Of a DNA stretch of 64,000 nucleotides, positions 28,542-33,337 are shown in pieces. Source of the DNA: a virus. The position numbers were made by a program, and so were the translations under genes. The first letter of the stretch is position 1. Each line of letters starts with the position of its first letter. A model generated the notes under the pieces. That model did not search any database, had not been told where the DNA came from, and was given only the letters and a program-made list of their open reading frames with translations. The stretch spans positions 1 through 64,000 of the IMG/VR virus record IMGVR_UViG_3300016644_000052; one strand, given 5' to 3'.

Positions 28542-28718
28542 GTGAACCGCATTCTTCCTGTCCTCATTCCCGATGACGGCCTCAGGGTCGTTTCCGCTGG
28601 AACCATCGGGTCCTACGCCATGACCCTACTCAACAACCCAAGCCACATCATCGAGGTCATCGCCGAGAAACGGCGCCGGGCCTTGATCAAGGAAAACAAC
28701 TTCCGCCGCTGGAGCTAA
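28542..28718 (+). CDS. small hypothetical protein (58 aa, GTG start)
   Basis: AAGGAA lies 7 nt upstream of the GTG. My own translation. Confidence 0.35.
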   Translation: MNRILPVLIPDDGLRVVSAGTIGSYAMTLLNNPSHIIEVIAEKRRRALIKENNFRRWS

Positions 28719-28722
28719 GACC

Positions 28723-29559
28723 ATGGCAAGCCAACCCATTACCGAAACCGACTCCAAGCTGGCTCACCAGCTGGAGTTGGAAAGGCTGTTCAACAAGAAC
28801 CAGCTGATCCCCAGGATCCGCAAAGAATTTGTCGAATCCAAGGATCCCAACTTTACCGAGTACATGGAAGCTCACGGAATCCCGGTTCCGTTTGGCTATG
28901 ACCTGCTCGTGCAGATGGTCCTCCACAAGCGGACCACGCTGCCGATCCTGGTCGGCATCCTGAAGCGTCACTTTGACAGCCTTCAAGACTGCGCTGATAT
29001 GCTGCTCAGAGCTGCCGAAGTCGACCTGGTCGACTGGCTGCCACTAACCCAGCAGTTCTGCCTCATCTTCGATATTACGCCTGACGTACAAGCGGAGCTG
29101 GATCGCTTCCAGTTTCCGCTGCCCATGGTCGTGCCGCCCAAGCGGATCACCAACAACAAGGAGTCAGGCTATCTGACCTCCGGTGGTTCAGTGATCCTCA
29201 GGCACAACCACCACGACGATGATGTTTGTCTCGACCATCTCAACCGGGTCAACGCTATCAAGTTCACCATCGACGATGACACCTCGCTGATGGTTCACAA
29301 CAAGTGGCGTAACCTCGACAAGCCCAAAGAAGGCGAAACCAAATCCGACTTCCAGAAGCGTGTCAAAGCCTTCGAGAAATACGATCGCTCTGCCCGTGAG
29401 GTCATCGACCTGATCGTCCAGGAAGGCCGGGAATTCTACCTCACCCACAAATACGACAAGCGAGGCCGGATCTACTGCCAGGGCTACCATGTCAATTACC
29501 AGGGTGCGCCCTGGAACAAGGCCGTGGTCCAGCTTGCCGACAAGGAGTTCGTGACATGA
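28723..29559 (+). CDS. phage RNA polymerase II small subunit (N4 gp15-like; N-terminal part of a T7-like RNAP)
   Basis: The C-terminal KYDKRGRIYCQGYHVNYQGAPWNKAVVQLA aligns with T7 RNAP NMDWRGRVYAVSMFNPQGNDMTKGLLTLA. Size is close to N4 gp15. Confidence 0.8.
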   Translation: MASQPITETDSKLAHQLELERLFNKNQLIPRIRKEFVESKDPNFTEYMEAHGIPVPFGYDLLVQMVLHKRTTLPILVGILKRHFDSLQDCADMLLRAAEVDLVDWLPLTQQFCLIFDITPDVQAELDRFQFPLPMVVPPKRITNNKESGYLTSGGSVILRHNHHDDDVCLDHLNRVNAIKFTIDDDTSLMVHNKWRNLDKPKEGETKSDFQKRVKAFEKYDRSAREVIDLIVQEGREFYLTHKYDKRGRIYCQGYHVNYQGAPWNKAVVQLADKEFVT

Positions 29560-29867
29560 AATGCACAAAATGCCGCGGCGAACGCCGCCTTTTCTTCACC
29601 CGTGAAGACGGCAATCTCTGGGTCAACTGTCCCCGCTGCCTTGGCACCGGAACTATGACAGAAGAACCAGAATCCAATGAATACTTCACCATCACGGTTC
29701 GCCGTAAGGGAACCAAGGATGAGCCTTACGAAAGGCATTATCTGGGCAGCTACCTCGAAGCCGAGCGGATCTGCGGACATCTGTGGAACTACTTCGACAT
29801 CGATGACCGCTTCAGGCTCACCCTTCGCAAAGAGGGCGAGCGCAAGATCCTCATGAGCATTGGATAA
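29556..29867 (+). CDS. DnaJ-type zinc-finger protein
   Basis: CTKCRGER and CPRCLGTG motifs. ATGA overlap with the RNAP small-subunit stop. Confidence 0.5.
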   Translation: MKCTKCRGERRLFFTREDGNLWVNCPRCLGTGTMTEEPESNEYFTITVRRKGTKDEPYERHYLGSYLEAERICGHLWNYFDIDDRFRLTLRKEGERKILMSIG

Positions 29868-29871
29868 CGCC

Positions 29872-30132
29872 ATGATCACCGCCGTCCACCCGATCGCTTC
29901 CAGCATCGCTGCCAATGACCTAGTCAATCTGCTGACCAGGTACGGCCTGTCCAAAGACAAGATCCAGGGCACCTTTGCCTCGATTGTCCAGGACTGCCTT
30001 TCCAACCTTCCGATCGCTATCTCCCATGACAGCGTCATGGGGGAGAAAAACGCCAGTGCAGATCTGGCCTATGCCAACATCAAGACTGCGGTTGAGAACC
30101 ACCGCATTATCAGGAGTGCTCTGCATGACTGA
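29872..30132 (+). CDS. hypothetical protein
   Basis: ATG at 29872 inside track ORF 29860-30132. Confidence 0.4.
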   Translation: MITAVHPIASSIAANDLVNLLTRYGLSKDKIQGTFASIVQDCLSNLPIAISHDSVMGEKNASADLAYANIKTAVENHRIIRSALHD

Positions 30133-30469
30133 ACGCACCAAATCCGACATCGTCAAAGAATACGCCATGGCCAACAACATGAAGATCATCGATCTTCAGA
30201 TGTCCGGCCAACCCCTCAAACCAGCCAAGCTCCCTGAGCTGCTGGTCCGCGACAACGAGACTGACTTTACCGCCAATACCAAGCCAGGAGATTCCTTCTG
30301 GATCGGGATTGGTAAGTTCAGTCTCTGGGTCCAGCACCTCAACGAGGGCGTCGTCATCGACGCCTATCCCCGCTCCAACGAAATGCTTCCCGAAGTCGGC
30401 AGCCTCCAGCTGTGGAACGACGACCTCGAAGAAGAGGAGGAACATAATGAGAACTCTGCATACGCGTGA
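30125..30469 (+). CDS. hypothetical protein
   Basis: Internal ATG at 30125 of track ORF 29975-30469; overlaps the previous stop. Confidence 0.45.
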   Translation: MTERTKSDIVKEYAMANNMKIIDLQMSGQPLKPAKLPELLVRDNETDFTANTKPGDSFWIGIGKFSLWVQHLNEGVVIDAYPRSNEMLPEVGSLQLWNDDLEEEEEHNENSAYA

Positions 30470-30728
30470 CGGTACTGCCTATGGCAATGCCATCATGATC
30501 CGCATCATTCCCGATGAAGACCTCGAACCAACCCTGAAGGACTACCTGAAGGGCCGGCCTATGTGGCTGATCGAGACTGACTACGGAAACCGTATCCGCC
30601 TAACCGAACGAGAAATTGACGAAATGTTTACCCGAGGGATTGCTATCAGCTACGCTGAGTGGGCGCAAAAACGCCGCATCCTGCAAGGTCGCAATCTTCT
30701 CGCTGACGAACAACTCGAACTCGCCTGA
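30447..30728 (+). CDS. hypothetical protein
   Basis: ATG at 30447 preceded by GAGGAGG. Confidence 0.45.
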   Translation: MRTLHTRDGTAYGNAIMIRIIPDEDLEPTLKDYLKGRPMWLIETDYGNRIRLTEREIDEMFTRGIAISYAEWAQKRRILQGRNLLADEQLELA

Positions 30729-30729
30729 C

Positions 30730-31182
30730 ATGAGGACATATACGATGCTCAAGTATCTGTTTGCGGCTGCCCTGCTGGCCGCTCCGTTAACCGCCGCTGC
30801 CCAGTCTGAAGATGTGCCCGAATGGTATCTGATCGATACCACTACATCCAACACAGACTTCTATGCCCGCACCGAAGATCTTCTGAAAGGCCGTGACTAT
30901 CAAACCGATGCCCGTGTCTGGGTTCGATTGGATGCTTCACGCGATCGCACTGTGGACTGGAAAGAAATGGTAGTTCTCTATTCCGTCAACTGCCCAGAGC
31001 GGACCACAAAAGTCCTTCACATGACGACCTATTACCGCAATGGTCGTAATGTAACTGACCGGGTCCCCGGTACTATCGAATATATCGTTCCCCGGTCCAT
31101 CATGGCTGCGACTGCTGACATGCTTTGCTACTCACCCAGCTCTAAACCTACCAGCTACGTGCCCGACAAGCACACCATCTAA
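30730..31182 (+). CDS. secreted protein, surface-adhesin-E-like fold candidate
   Basis: Signal peptide MLKYLFAAALLAAPLTAAAQ. The mature part (W.LID......FY......ARVWV......Y.VNC..R....L....YY..G) resembles the Adhesin_E pattern. Confidence 0.5.
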   Translation: MRTYTMLKYLFAAALLAAPLTAAAQSEDVPEWYLIDTTTSNTDFYARTEDLLKGRDYQTDARVWVRLDASRDRTVDWKEMVVLYSVNCPERTTKVLHMTTYYRNGRNVTDRVPGTIEYIVPRSIMAATADMLCYSPSSKPTSYVPDKHTI

Positions 31183-31200
31183 TCATCCTACACATCATCA

Positions 31201-31238
31201 GCACCTAGCCCACTGCTTTTTGCGGTGTGGTTAGGTGC
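31201..31238 (+). terminator. imperfect long hairpin after the secreted-protein gene
   Basis: GCACCTAGCCCAC...GTGTGGTTAGGTGC. Confidence 0.4.
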
Positions 31239-31258
31239 GTCTATTTGAGGAACCAGAC

Positions 31259-31312
31259 ATGCAGACTTTCACCGGCAAGGAATACCTCAAGATCGACATT
31301 GCCAACAACTAG
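31259..31312 (+). pseudogene. orphaned original 5' end of the RNAPII large-subunit gene (17 codons, then TAG)
   Basis: MQTFTGKEYLKIDIANN* has its own GAGGAA RBS and duplicates residues 6-18 of the gene starting at 31999. Confidence 0.65.
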
Positions 31313-32052
31313 GTTTTGACAAACGAAACCGCAGCTAATAAGGGTGTCTCGATAAGGAGAACCCTTGTGAAACAATGCTCTATTTGTGCCCAAACCCTAC
31401 CCCTCACAGCTTTTGATAAGCAGGCTACCGGCAAGCACGGTAGACGAGCCGACTGCAAAGATTGCCGTAAACGGTTCAACCGAACCCCCAAAGGCTTGGT
31501 CAAATCGCTCTACTCAAACCAAGTGGCCAAAAGCAGAAAACGAGGCCACCCGGCACCTGCCTATACTGAAGCAGAATTATTCGATTGGCTTTGGTCACAG
31601 CCTCACGCTCAAGCACTTTATGATGCCTGGGTGTCTGGCGGCTACGTCTCAGACAACAAGCCTTCAGTAGACCGTCTCGATGACTATTTGCCGTACACCC
31701 TGACCAACATACGCTTGGTCACTTGGAGCACCAACAACCAGCGGCAGTATGCTGATCGTGTTGCAGGTATCAATGTTAAGGCCTGTCATGCAGTGGACCA
31801 ATACTCTCTGGACGGGCAATTCATAACAACCCACCACTCTTATAAAGCCGCCGCTCGGGCCGTAAAAGGCAACTTCGCCAACATCAGAAATGTTGCTGAA
31901 CAGCGACCGATACATCGGGCAGAAAAAAACGGCCTTATCCGCAGCTACACCCCAATGAGCGCCAGCGGTTACATCTGGCGAAAGCACGGAGAACCTTTAT
32001 GACTTTTCAATCTTTTACGGGACGGGAATATCTTAAAATTGATATTGCGAAC
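31313..32052 (+). mobile_element. homing-endonuclease cassette with a recoded target-site duplicate
   Basis: Bounded by imperfect 39-nt direct repeats (31268-31306 and 32014-32052). They differ at 12 positions, 10 of them synonymous third positions. Confidence 0.6.
31367..32002 (+). CDS. HNH/His-Me-finger homing endonuclease with a NUMOD/IENR1-like C-terminal DNA-binding repeat
   Basis: GTG at 31367 with AAGGAG 7 nt upstream. N-terminal CSIC...CKDC zinc finger, then VDRLDDYLPYTLTNIRLVTWSTNN, then YSLDGQFITTHHSYKAAARAV.GNFANIRNV. Its stop overlaps the RNAP gene start (ATGA). Confidence 0.6.
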   Translation: MKQCSICAQTLPLTAFDKQATGKHGRRADCKDCRKRFNRTPKGLVKSLYSNQVAKSRKRGHPAPAYTEAELFDWLWSQPHAQALYDAWVSGGYVSDNKPSVDRLDDYLPYTLTNIRLVTWSTNNQRQYADRVAGINVKACHAVDQYSLDGQFITTHHSYKAAARAVKGNFANIRNVAEQRPIHRAEKNGLIRSYTPMSASGYIWRKHGEPL

Positions 32053-33201
32053 CATATGGGCCTCGACAAGCTCACCTGGGATGAGCGCATCACCTGGTTC
32101 GACGCCAACGAAAATTCGTTGGAGACCTTAATTGACCAGGCTGACGAACCAGCCCTCTACTATGCTGGCGTCAAGGCCTGGCGTAAAGTCCAGGCAGGTG
32201 AGCCAACCGGCTACATGATCAGTCTCGATGCAACTTCGTCAGGCTTGCAGATCCTGGCTGCCCTGACCGGCGATGGCTCTGCTGCCGAGCTGTGCAACGT
32301 CACTGGCAAGGGCCAGCGCATGGACGCCTATACCGCGATCTACCGGGCTATGCTCGACAAGGTCGACGACTCTGCCAAGATCGACCGGGACGGCGTCAAG
32401 CGGGCGATCATGACCAGCCTCTATGGTTCTACTGCCGTGCCCAAAGACGTATTCGGCGAAGGCTATCTGCTCCAGACCTTCTATGACACCATGAAAGAAC
32501 TGGCTCCAGCTGCCTGGGAACTCAACGAAGCATTCCTGGCGCTATGGGATCCTGAGGCTCTTGAGAACTCCTGGATCCTGCCCGACAACTTCCATGTCCA
32601 CATCAAAGTCATGGACCGCGTCAAGGAAACTGTTCACTTTCTGAACCAACCCTTTGATGTCTACTATAATGTGAACACTCCGATCGAGAATGGCCGCTCC
32701 CTGGGCGCCAATATCGTTCACTCGATCGACGGCATGATCGTCCGAGAAATGACCCGGCGCTGCACCTATGATCCGGCCATGCCGGCCCAGATCCGCAAGG
32801 TTCTGGAAATCGGCTGCGGCATTCGCCAGAAAACCCATGACGATATTATGGTGATGACCCTGTGGGGTCATTACCTCAAGTCAGGATTTCTCTCGGCCCG
32901 GATCCTCGATCATCTCACTGCCGACAACTGCGGGCATGTTCATGCCCAGACCATCTACAACTTGCTTGATACCCTACCGGAAAAGCCTTTTCCGGTCATC
33001 TCGGTCCACGACTGCTTCCGCTGTCATCCCAACTACGGCAACGACCTGCGGCTGCAATACAACCTTCAGCTGACCATGCTGGCACAGAGCGATTTGCTCC
33101 AGTTCCTAATCAGCCAGCTGCTCGACAAGCCGGTCAAGATCGGCAAGCTCAATCCGCAGCTCTGGACCCAGATCCCTTACACCAATTACGCACTCTCCTA
33201 A
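31999..33201 (+). CDS. phage RNA polymerase II large subunit (N4 gp16-like; catalytic part of a T7-like RNAP)
   Basis: Motif A MISLDATSSGLQILAAL, motif B RDGVKRAIMTSLYGS and motif C VISVHDCF. Confidence 0.85.
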   Translation: MTFQSFTGREYLKIDIANHMGLDKLTWDERITWFDANENSLETLIDQADEPALYYAGVKAWRKVQAGEPTGYMISLDATSSGLQILAALTGDGSAAELCNVTGKGQRMDAYTAIYRAMLDKVDDSAKIDRDGVKRAIMTSLYGSTAVPKDVFGEGYLLQTFYDTMKELAPAAWELNEAFLALWDPEALENSWILPDNFHVHIKVMDRVKETVHFLNQPFDVYYNVNTPIENGRSLGANIVHSIDGMIVREMTRRCTYDPAMPAQIRKVLEIGCGIRQKTHDDIMVMTLWGHYLKSGFLSARILDHLTADNCGHVHAQTIYNLLDTLPEKPFPVISVHDCFRCHPNYGNDLRLQYNLQLTMLAQSDLLQFLISQLLDKPVKIGKLNPQLWTQIPYTNYALS

Positions 33202-33215
33202 AATTGCTGCCTTTC

Positions 33216-33250
33216 GGGACACCCTTCATCGGGTGTCCCGTATTTTTTTA
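33216..33250 (+). terminator. rho-independent terminator
   Basis: GGGACACCC-TTCATC-GGGTGTCCC followed by GTATTTTTTTA. Confidence 0.8.
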
Positions 33251-33337
33251 CCTAACCCCAACAGCCTAGCCTGATCTCTTTCTTGGTTTTCACAAGACTC
33301 CACGGAGACTCCTGGAGCCAACCAGAAAGGATATACC

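Follow-up and report, generated by a model that had tools for sequence, protein, structure and literature searches.

A probable homing-endonuclease cassette carrying a replacement start for the RNA polymerase gene gp16 of an N4-like phage

How does an endonuclease gene come to lie at the very beginning of an essential phage gene, and why is that beginning present there twice? The question is raised by a stretch of viral DNA of 64,000 nucleotides (IMG/VR record IMGVR_UViG_3300016644_000052, positions 1 to 64,000; hereafter the window, whose numbering is used throughout) that belongs to an N4-like phage (Schitoviridae). In phage N4, gp15 and gp16 form the heterodimeric RNA polymerase II (RNAPII), which transcribes the middle genes. 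In the window, the gene for the gp16-type large subunit is preceded by an endonuclease-like gene, and this in turn by a short orphan open reading frame (ORF) that repeats the first codons of gp16. The initial annotation of this DNA proposed that a free-standing homing endonuclease had invaded the gp16 start and had brought its own variant of that start. The proposal is supported by three sharply bounded tracts exchanged between phages and by recurrence of the layout in further loci (L188 and L184-186), and no intron was found; the region is most likely a mobile homing-endonuclease cassette within the start of the gp16 gene.

The start of gp16 is present twice

The orphan ORF (31259-31312, + strand) has 17 codons and encodes MQTFTGKEYLKIDIANN before its stop codon. 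A Shine-Dalgarno (SD) sequence, GAGGA (31247-31251), sits 7 nt before its ATG, and the two together (31247-31312) make up a displaced native gp16 start, with codon usage of the resident type (G+C content at third codon positions, GC3, 0.82). The peptide has the canonical form of the gp16 family, MQTFTG[KR]EYLKIDIANN(F/Y)GLDK, and is identical at 16 of 17 positions to the gp16 N terminus of an independent relative, L006 (E=6.8e-8), in agreement with the first description of the ORF as a repeat of the large-subunit start with a ribosome-binding site of its own. The match is not due to chance: a comparison of the L006 N terminus with the window gave two matches below E=0.5 and no more, one to the gene start (E=3e-16) and one to the orphan ORF. 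The copy does not end at the stop codon: it runs on out of frame as GGT TTT GAC AAA (31312-31323, 'GFDK'), which indicates that the copy spans about 22 gene-start codons and that its Phe/Tyr codon has lost one base.

The two 39-nt copies of the start (31268-31306 and 32014-32052) differ at 11 positions, nine of them synonymous third-position changes and two in a single codon (AAG Lys versus CGG Arg); the 12 differences, ten of them synonymous, that had been reported before were a miscount. The share of mismatches at third positions (9/11) has a P value of 1.4e-4, and, with 9/13 codons synonymously different, the copies diverged as functional orthologues and not in place. This degree of divergence makes it very improbable that the arrangement arose through faulty assembly, or through tandem duplication in situ with no connection to the endonuclease gene, as does the presence of the same arrangement in an independent assembly, L035 (GCA_037963435.1), and of analogous ones in independent samples (L184-186 and L188).

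The working gp16 gene (31999-33201, + strand; 400 aa) begins MTFQSFTGREYLKIDIANHMGLDK. Its product contains a T7-like RNA polymerase domain (Pfam RNA_pol, E=2e-20) and is 57-63% identical to annotated Schitoviridae RNAP2 proteins, and a separate gp15-type gene lies upstream. The gene is a chimera, in which a cassette-borne start is joined to a resident body: GC3 is 0.28 in codons 1-18 (31999-32052, + strand), 0.89 in codons 19-36 and 0.73 in the remaining gp16, compared with 0.54 in the endonuclease gene and 0.82 in the orphan copy. The A/T-ending codons of the downstream copy, and the return to GC3-rich codons after 32052, were already recognized in the initial annotation and are evident in these values. 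Only 2.3% of 13-codon windows in the long ORFs of the window are as AT-rich at third positions as the new start, the composition of which is foreign. The SD of this start, GGAG (31988-31991), is located in the endonuclease coding sequence; the ATG shares nucleotides with the endonuclease stop codon (ATGA, 31999-32002), also as first described.

Endonucleases of this general kind are often intron-encoded, as is I-HmuI, and a group I intron or another form of splicing, with 31259-31312 as exon 1, therefore had to be considered. Between 28500 and 33500, no Rfam family was found at E<=1 except a spurious snoRNA match, and the displaced start is frameshifted at its end. Furthermore, the downstream gene repeats the same residues with its own SD and ATG, so that splicing would duplicate or truncate the N terminus. 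A spliced exon, which the initial annotation had named as an outcome that would overturn its proposal, is hardly credible on this evidence.

Exchanged tracts end at one site in gp16

The window and L035, its sole close relative, share a tract of low divergence (31234-32066) with only two differences in 833 nt (Poisson P ~1e-18), whereas divergence is 12.6% in the left flank and 4.8% in the gp16 body. Codons 1-18 of gp16 contain no difference at all. The last difference on the left side is at 31300, abutting a motif that begins at 31301, and the first on the right side affects the third base of the Asp codon in 'GLDK' (32067). The same pattern is seen in two further pairs. L036 and L037 differ at one position in 782 nt versus 4.4-5.1% in the flanks, with the left edge 7 nt before the motif and the right edge in the same Asp codon. 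L178 and L179 differ at five positions in 799 nt versus 11-19% in the flanks, with the right edge at codon 20 and the left edge in gp15, which lies directly upstream.

These are three independent phage pairs (P values 1e-18, 5e-15 and 7e-49), and each displays recent horizontal transfer with a co-converted flank. All three tracts have their right edge at gp16 codons 20-23, and two have their left edge 0-7 nt from the motif, m1; that is, the edges of the exchange lie at the two copies of the target. The three tracts indicate that the endonuclease gene and the first ~20 gp16 codons move together and that exchange ends at one short gp16 site. The mobile unit therefore comprises a pseudo-target (m1), the endonuclease gene and the first ~20 gp16 codons.

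Pseudo-target motifs and a variant target site

The left edge of the mobile tract is formed by m1 (31298-31323, + strand; ATTGCCAACAAC TAGGTT TTGACAAA), a copy of the gp16 site coding for IANN(F/Y)GLDK from whose Phe/Tyr codon 1 nt is deleted. A further copy, m2 (31334-31359, + strand), is degenerate; placed by eye and with a one-mismatch pattern, it overlaps the endonuclease SD. The motif GCYAAYAAY-N6-TTGAYAAA is found upstream of the endonuclease genes of the close clade, usually in two copies, at -69 to -72 and -36 to -39. In the window, L188, L036, L039 and L187, the distance from m1 to the endonuclease start is 69-72 nt (in L181, m1 is at -79), and the spacing within m1 is always 6 nt, versus 7 nt in ten native gp16 sites; m2-type copies, located with a regular expression, lie 36-39 nt before the start in L036, L039, L187, L175, L178 and L040. 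Synonymous sites are saturated between the endonuclease genes of the window and L183 (proportion of synonymous differences, pS, 0.84), and the motif has been kept in spite of this, which suggests that it is probably functional.

In the window and in L188, the left half of m1 has C-ending codons of the resident type (GCC AAC AAC) and the right half resembles that of other cassettes, which places the junction inside m1. The remnants or motifs in the window, L188, L036, L039 and L187 share a common end: all stop within the IANN(F/Y)GLDK site, with the same spacing short by 1 nt. The remnant in L184, which is more divergent, has its end in that region too, without a match to the motif pattern.

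The corresponding site in the working gene, T* (32044-32070, + strand), reads ATT GCG AAC CAT ATG GGC CTC GAC AAG and encodes IANHMGLDK; it forms the right edge of the mobile tract, as the first difference between the window and L035, at 32067, lies within it. Met at the Phe/Tyr position occurs in 3/8 endonuclease-linked lineages versus 0/119 homologues. We infer from this altered site that T* would be the determinant of immunity.

It is also conceivable that m1 and m2 are mainly regulatory, either as operators bound by the endonuclease or as parts of a hairpin masking the SD; this is doubtful rather than far-fetched, and it is compatible with a mobile cassette. Autorepression is known for I-TevI. 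The motifs show conservation, also of their position with respect to the start codon, the TTTGACAAA core reads as a near-palindrome, and stable hairpins that include the SD are predicted in 7/8 loci (z -1.6 to -4.6), although their sequences differ. In the window, the predicted hairpin (31342-31368) pairs the SD (GGAG) of the endonuclease gene with UCUC and takes in part of the GTG start (z -3.9). By contrast, the pairing probability of the SD in endonuclease 5' regions is no higher than at control starts (the 5' regions of gp16 and of the remnants), which leaves translational masking unsupported; RNAalifold gave no consensus for these 5' regions, the hairpins lying in different registers, and a sigma-70 promoter scan called no promoter on the + strand. 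The tandem motifs were also considered as a -35/-10 pair, an idea that was dropped since their spacing varies from 14 to 17 nt.

Recurrence and distribution of the layout

Homologues of the endonuclease (35-73% identical) are encoded directly upstream of gp16 in more than 12 N4-like lineages from metagenomes. Their distribution is patchy, with the gene missing from most of 32 gp16-bearing IMG/VR loci, and the position before gp16 is a hot spot for endonuclease genes. In L188, an intact remnant ORF with its own SD (starting MQTFTPRQYLQIDIANNF) is followed by the endonuclease gene and then by a new start, MTFQMFTPREYLQIDIANNWGQDNDK. L184-186 have the same layout in a divergent gp16, with MLPNYTPVQWLQIGLANAFEK as the remnant and MPNYTPTEWLQIGLSAAFGKDK as the working start. 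Thus, the three-part layout of a GC3-rich displaced start, an endonuclease gene and a new start richer in A/T at third positions recurs independently in L188 and L184-186. Together with the window and L035, these are the loci that have a full gp16 on one side of the endonuclease gene and a displaced fragment on the other; decayed remnants are present in L036 and L175. Remnants of a gp16 start were found only beside this endonuclease family, which lacks the catalytic His (see below). All 14 exact matches in IMG/VR to the coding sequence for EYLKIDIANN proved to be ordinary intact gene starts, with no further remnants among them.

The more distantly related family members (L013, L042/43, L048/49, L028 and L005) occupy a clean position between gp15 and gp16, and neither remnant nor motif accompanies them. 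They suit a simpler scheme, in which the element is an ordinary intergenic free-standing homing endonuclease, illegitimate recombination duplicated the start on a single occasion as a side effect, and the upstream motif is a relic in decay that plays no part in mobility. In the same sense, the left tract edge of L178/L179 lies in gp15, so that homology to the two neighbouring genes suffices there, and m1 is short. However, the combination of intact remnant and new start arose at least three times, in lineages where the sequences differ (window, L188 and L184), the 1-nt-deleted spacing of m1 and its distance are constant in five lineages despite synonymous saturation, and tract edges coincide with m1 in two pairs. 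We consider this scheme unlikely, if still a serious contender, and prefer the cassette with its own replacement start.

Other endonuclease genes occur in the same region. Unrelated genes of the HNH_3/AP2 type lie at or near the locus in L190/L191 (2407-2991), L178 (5769-6251), L184 (3781-4323) and L188 (1427-1942). The one in L190 is directly upstream of gp16, and that in L184 follows a gp16 ORF of only 326 aa, where gp16 may be split by a second endonuclease. In L037 (1018-1281) and L038 (924-1187), the gp16 ORF after the endonuclease gene is called at just 87 aa, and a second ORF begins beyond a gap. In the near-identical L036, gp16 is complete (420 aa); the break could stem from a frameshift, from misassembly or from another insertion in gp16.

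An atypical His-Me-finger protein

The free-standing endonuclease gene (31367-32002, + strand) encodes 211 aa, with a GTG start, a TGA stop and AAGGAG (31354-31359) as its SD. The protein matches PHROG 1035, labelled 'endonuclease VII' (E=6.6e-20), and a profile of 29 homologues matches I-HmuI (E=0.009) and PacI (E=0.022). In an AlphaFold model (pLDDT 93.9), the best Foldseek match in the PDB is I-HmuI (prob 0.99), with a low global TM-score (0.24-0.28). Best matches are thus to His-Me-finger proteins, not to LAGLIDADG, WHO or HO proteins. The F-CphI/Endo VII 'DHHRN' family, considered because of the PHROG label, was set aside, as the DHH residues are missing in the protein. A scan of IMG/VR with the single endonuclease sequence returned nothing; as the alignment of 29 sequences was too diverse for pattern design, one of 17 sequences was used.

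The family has an N-terminal CxxC...CxxC motif (C4/C7/C30/C33), a core 'PSVDRLDDYxPYxLxNIRLVTW..N' and a C-terminal NUMOD1-like part. The model displays a beta-beta-alpha core (strands 99-103 and 115-119, then helix 120-132) that aligns with I-HmuI. Within it, D102-R103, Y110 and N114 are invariant and N123 nearly so among the 29 aligned homologues, and of the omega-loop tyrosines Y110 is invariant and Y107 nearly so. R103, present in all 29, occupies the position of the catalytic His in 'VDHKD' of I-HmuI. Of Pfam models, none of the HNH type matched, and only NUMOD1 gave a score, 17.2 bits, which is under its cut-off of 22.8. The original assignment as an HNH/NUMOD-like endonuclease is therefore retained for the nuclease fold and, weakly, for the NUMOD1-like part, and has to be given up for the canonical HNH motif.

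I-HmuI (phage SPO1, PDB 1U3E), the best match by profile and fold, likewise combines a nuclease core with a C-terminal NUMOD/helix-turn-helix-like part for DNA binding. Unlike I-HmuI, which is intron-encoded and has a canonical His, the protein from the window is free-standing, has Arg103 and carries an extra N-terminal CxxC...CxxC motif. PacI belongs to His-Me-finger group 20, and in it a tyrosine of the omega loop replaces histidine in catalysis (PMC5714182). The protein resembles PacI in its 'VDR' instead of 'VDH' strand, its N-terminal Cys4 motif and its omega-loop tyrosine, the profile match being weak (E=0.022); it differs in that PacI is a homodimeric restriction enzyme without NUMOD-like domains. 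By these sequence features, the protein is an atypical His-Me finger without the His; nuclease activity is plausible and would need a PacI-like tyrosine mechanism.

The ratio of nonsynonymous to synonymous substitution rates (dN/dS) between the endonuclease genes of L039 and L187 is ~0.14, and the protein is thus under purifying selection. Such selection would equally fit a catalytically dead, domesticated protein, for example a DNA-binding regulator of gp16, with a cassette that spreads passively by recombination; the replacement of the catalytic His by Arg in every aligned homologue and the missing Pfam HNH match point in that direction. Nevertheless, PacI is active without the His by means of its omega-loop Tyr (PMC5714182), and the family has Y110 and Y107 in that loop. 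The patchy distribution among N4-like phages, and three pairs with sharp tracts whose edges lie at the same target site, the footprint of break-induced conversion, also speak against domestication, which we regard as improbable.

The family is without a Pfam nuclease model of its own. Some 125 of the fetched loci (within L044-L174) carry homologues with no gp16 nearby, which indicates that it is widespread in other phage types, presumably with other targets.

Neighbouring genes

The gp15-type small subunit of the RNAPII heterodimer is encoded at 28723-29559 (+ strand), and tblastn matches to gp15 homologues were obtained in all related loci. In Schitoviridae records, the neighbouring genes bear the annotations RNAP1 and RNAP2. 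A few small genes separate the two subunit genes in relatives as well, and in other phages the endonuclease gene is directly 3' of the gp15-type gene.

A strong hairpin (31201-31238, + strand; dG -30.5 kcal/mol, z -5.2) lies between the gene preceding the remnant and the native ribosome-binding site of gp16. It is kept in L035 through a compensatory change from T-A to C-G (T31206C with A31233G). A terminator scan did not call this hairpin, and its U tract is weak; it may serve as a terminator, an attenuator or a processing site. The product of the preceding gene (30730-31182, + strand), just 5' of the remnant, is probably a lipoprotein (Pfam Adhesin_E, PF16747, E=1.4e-5), and a weak Adhesin_E gene precedes gp16 in L035 and the P0034 contig as well, at the corresponding position. 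It is unusual for a lytic N4-like phage to encode an adhesin-like surface protein in its early/middle region, and a role in superinfection exclusion is conceivable.

A segment of 562 nt (29576-30136) is missing from L035 and constitutes a second indel between the RNAPII subunit genes. It holds most of an ORF of 103 aa with a CxxC zinc ribbon (29556-29867; weak matches to DnaJ_CXXCXGXG and TFIIB) and an ORF of 90 aa (29860-30132). In L189 (690-1187) and L190 (931-1398), the interval between the RNAPII subunit genes codes for proteins resembling sigma factors of the extracytoplasmic function (ECF) type (Pfam Sigma70_r2). The stop codon of the one in L189 overlaps the gp16 start; a sigma-like gene beside that of a T7-like polymerase is curious.

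Discussion

The cassette has, with good probability, four parts: m1 and m2, the endonuclease gene (31367-32002), a foreign stretch of ~18-20 gp16 codons with SD and ATG (31988-32052), and the variant target IANHMGLDK. Its spread can be envisaged as follows. Upon co-infection, the enzyme would cut a cassette-free gp16 gene within the sequence coding for IANN(F/Y)GLDK, at codons ~17-23. The right end of the break would be repaired from the gp16 body of the donor, and the left end would pair with the donor pseudo-target upstream of the endonuclease gene, m1 serving as homology arm. The recipient would gain the endonuclease gene and a new gp16 start, presumably not cut by the enzyme; both the shortened m1 and the altered T* would be immune. 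The resident SD, ATG and first 17 codons would be pushed upstream and remain as the dead orphan ORF (31259-31312). In the window, the overlap of stop and start codons may allow gp16 and the endonuclease to be translated together.

Several observations weigh against this interpretation. No cassette-free close relative was found among GenBank phages or in IMG/VR: megablast of 28700-33300 against GenBank phages gave no match, no gp16 in IMG/VR is >62% identical to that of the window, and L035, with a gp16 98% identical, has the cassette too. With no close match in either collection, an empty-site comparison at the DNA level is impossible. The 67 nt of remnant to the left of m1 contain one difference between the window and L035, and in this pair independent invasions and shared ancestry are not separated. 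As a homology arm, m1 is short (~26 nt) and imperfect. Met or Trp at the Phe/Tyr codon, the one shortened in m1, occurs in 4/8 endonuclease-linked lineages versus 1/119 homologues (P=3e-5, in a Fisher test in which the counted lineages are not fully independent), yet the resulting prediction failed in P0034, which has Trp at the site and an ECF-sigma-like gene, not an endonuclease gene, upstream. Added to these are the Arg in place of the catalytic His and the unremarkable pairing of the endonuclease SD, both described above.

The properties of the new start have to be counted in the same balance. Across cassettes, the start does not always have a lower GC3 than the endonuclease gene (remnant, endonuclease gene, new start and gp16 body: 0.94/0.25/0.39/0.69 in L188 and 0.80/0.57/0.50/0.70 in L184), and MQTFTG and MTFQxFTG N termini are both natural variants of the gp16 family. 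The notion of a 'recoded' copy has to be amended accordingly: deliberate extra recoding was rejected, since the start is not consistently more AT-rich at third positions than the endonuclease gene, and the start is better read as a foreign allele that shares the lower GC3 of the cassette. The 'MTFQ' start was likewise rejected as a marker of the cassette, being common in the family and paired in L190 with the unrelated HNH_3 endonuclease. The overlap of stop and start codons is confined to the window, L035 and, as GTGA, L183, other cassettes having a spacer with an SD; translational coupling, also proposed at first, is hence not a conserved feature of the cassette.

Replacement of a gene end by a mobile element has precedents. 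In the icd gene, the elements e14 and phage 21 bring a gene end that restores the gene, the displaced copy stays behind, and the differences between the copies are mostly synonymous; integration there relies on an integrase and att sites instead of break-induced homing, and it is the 3' end that is replaced.

The closest parallel is provided by the WHO elements of Torulaspora and Lachancea yeasts (Coughlan et al. 2020, eLife; PMC7282813), which replace the 3' end of FBA1 and whose displaced fragments serve as homology arms in the published model; this logic of end replacement has been proposed and partly demonstrated in yeast (PMC7282813). As in WHO elements, the endonuclease gene adjoins its essential target gene, integration swaps one gene end for an allele thought to be resistant to cleavage, and the old end is displaced as a fragment, the fragments sharing an end point at what would here be the cut site. 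Unlike the WHO elements, which act on a 3' end in yeast, the phage cassette swaps the 5' end and must therefore bring an SD and a start codon; its nuclease is a His-Me finger related to I-HmuI and PacI, in contrast to the LAGLIDADG/intein-related WHO and HO proteins; and the pseudo-target it retains is only ~26 nt long with a conserved 1-nt deletion. We rate the cassette as a free-standing homing endonuclease with WHO-like end replacement, a strategy described so far in yeast and not in phages.

With the free-standing endonucleases of phages (T4 seg/mob and F-CphI; PMC10448857 and PMC6083498), the cassette shares its place beside a conserved essential gene, its patchy distribution, the co-conversion of the flanking target and exchange boundaries at the nuclease gene. 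Those elements differ from it in sitting between genes or splitting genes. A literature search found neither a phage homing element that brings a replacement gene start and leaves the old one behind nor a description of an endonuclease between the RNAPII genes of N4-like phages.

If this reading is true, the cassette represents a third way for a selfish endonuclease to exist inside an essential gene, beside splicing (introns and inteins) and gene splitting: it supplies a new start. The candidate cut site is narrowed to ~25 nt, with two natural candidate immune versions (the 1-nt deletion, and Asn-Phe changed to His-Met), and donor cassettes exist in several lineages. The nuclease stands for a largely uncharacterised His-less branch of the His-Me-finger superfamily, in which PacI is the sole studied relative. 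For annotation, short orphan ORFs that repeat the start of a neighbouring gene beside a nuclease gene can be taken as footprints that locate homing sites. For Schitoviridae, exchange of the first ~20 codons of the polymerase for middle transcription takes place between phages with flanks up to ~19% different, a point of consequence for phylogenies and recombination analyses of the family.

More broadly, and as a tentative proposal that falls a little short of an even call, there may exist in N4-like phages a family of homing elements that do not depend on a conserved gene to their left, with a short, cleavage-proof copy of the target as a portable upstream arm and a replacement SD, ATG and ~20 codons as an immune allele. 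Such elements could enter any N4-like gp16, the N terminus of which would be repeatedly overwritten, with orphan starts left to mark the cut site; they would be a phage counterpart of the yeast WHO/HO systems, evolved independently with a His-less His-Me-finger nuclease.

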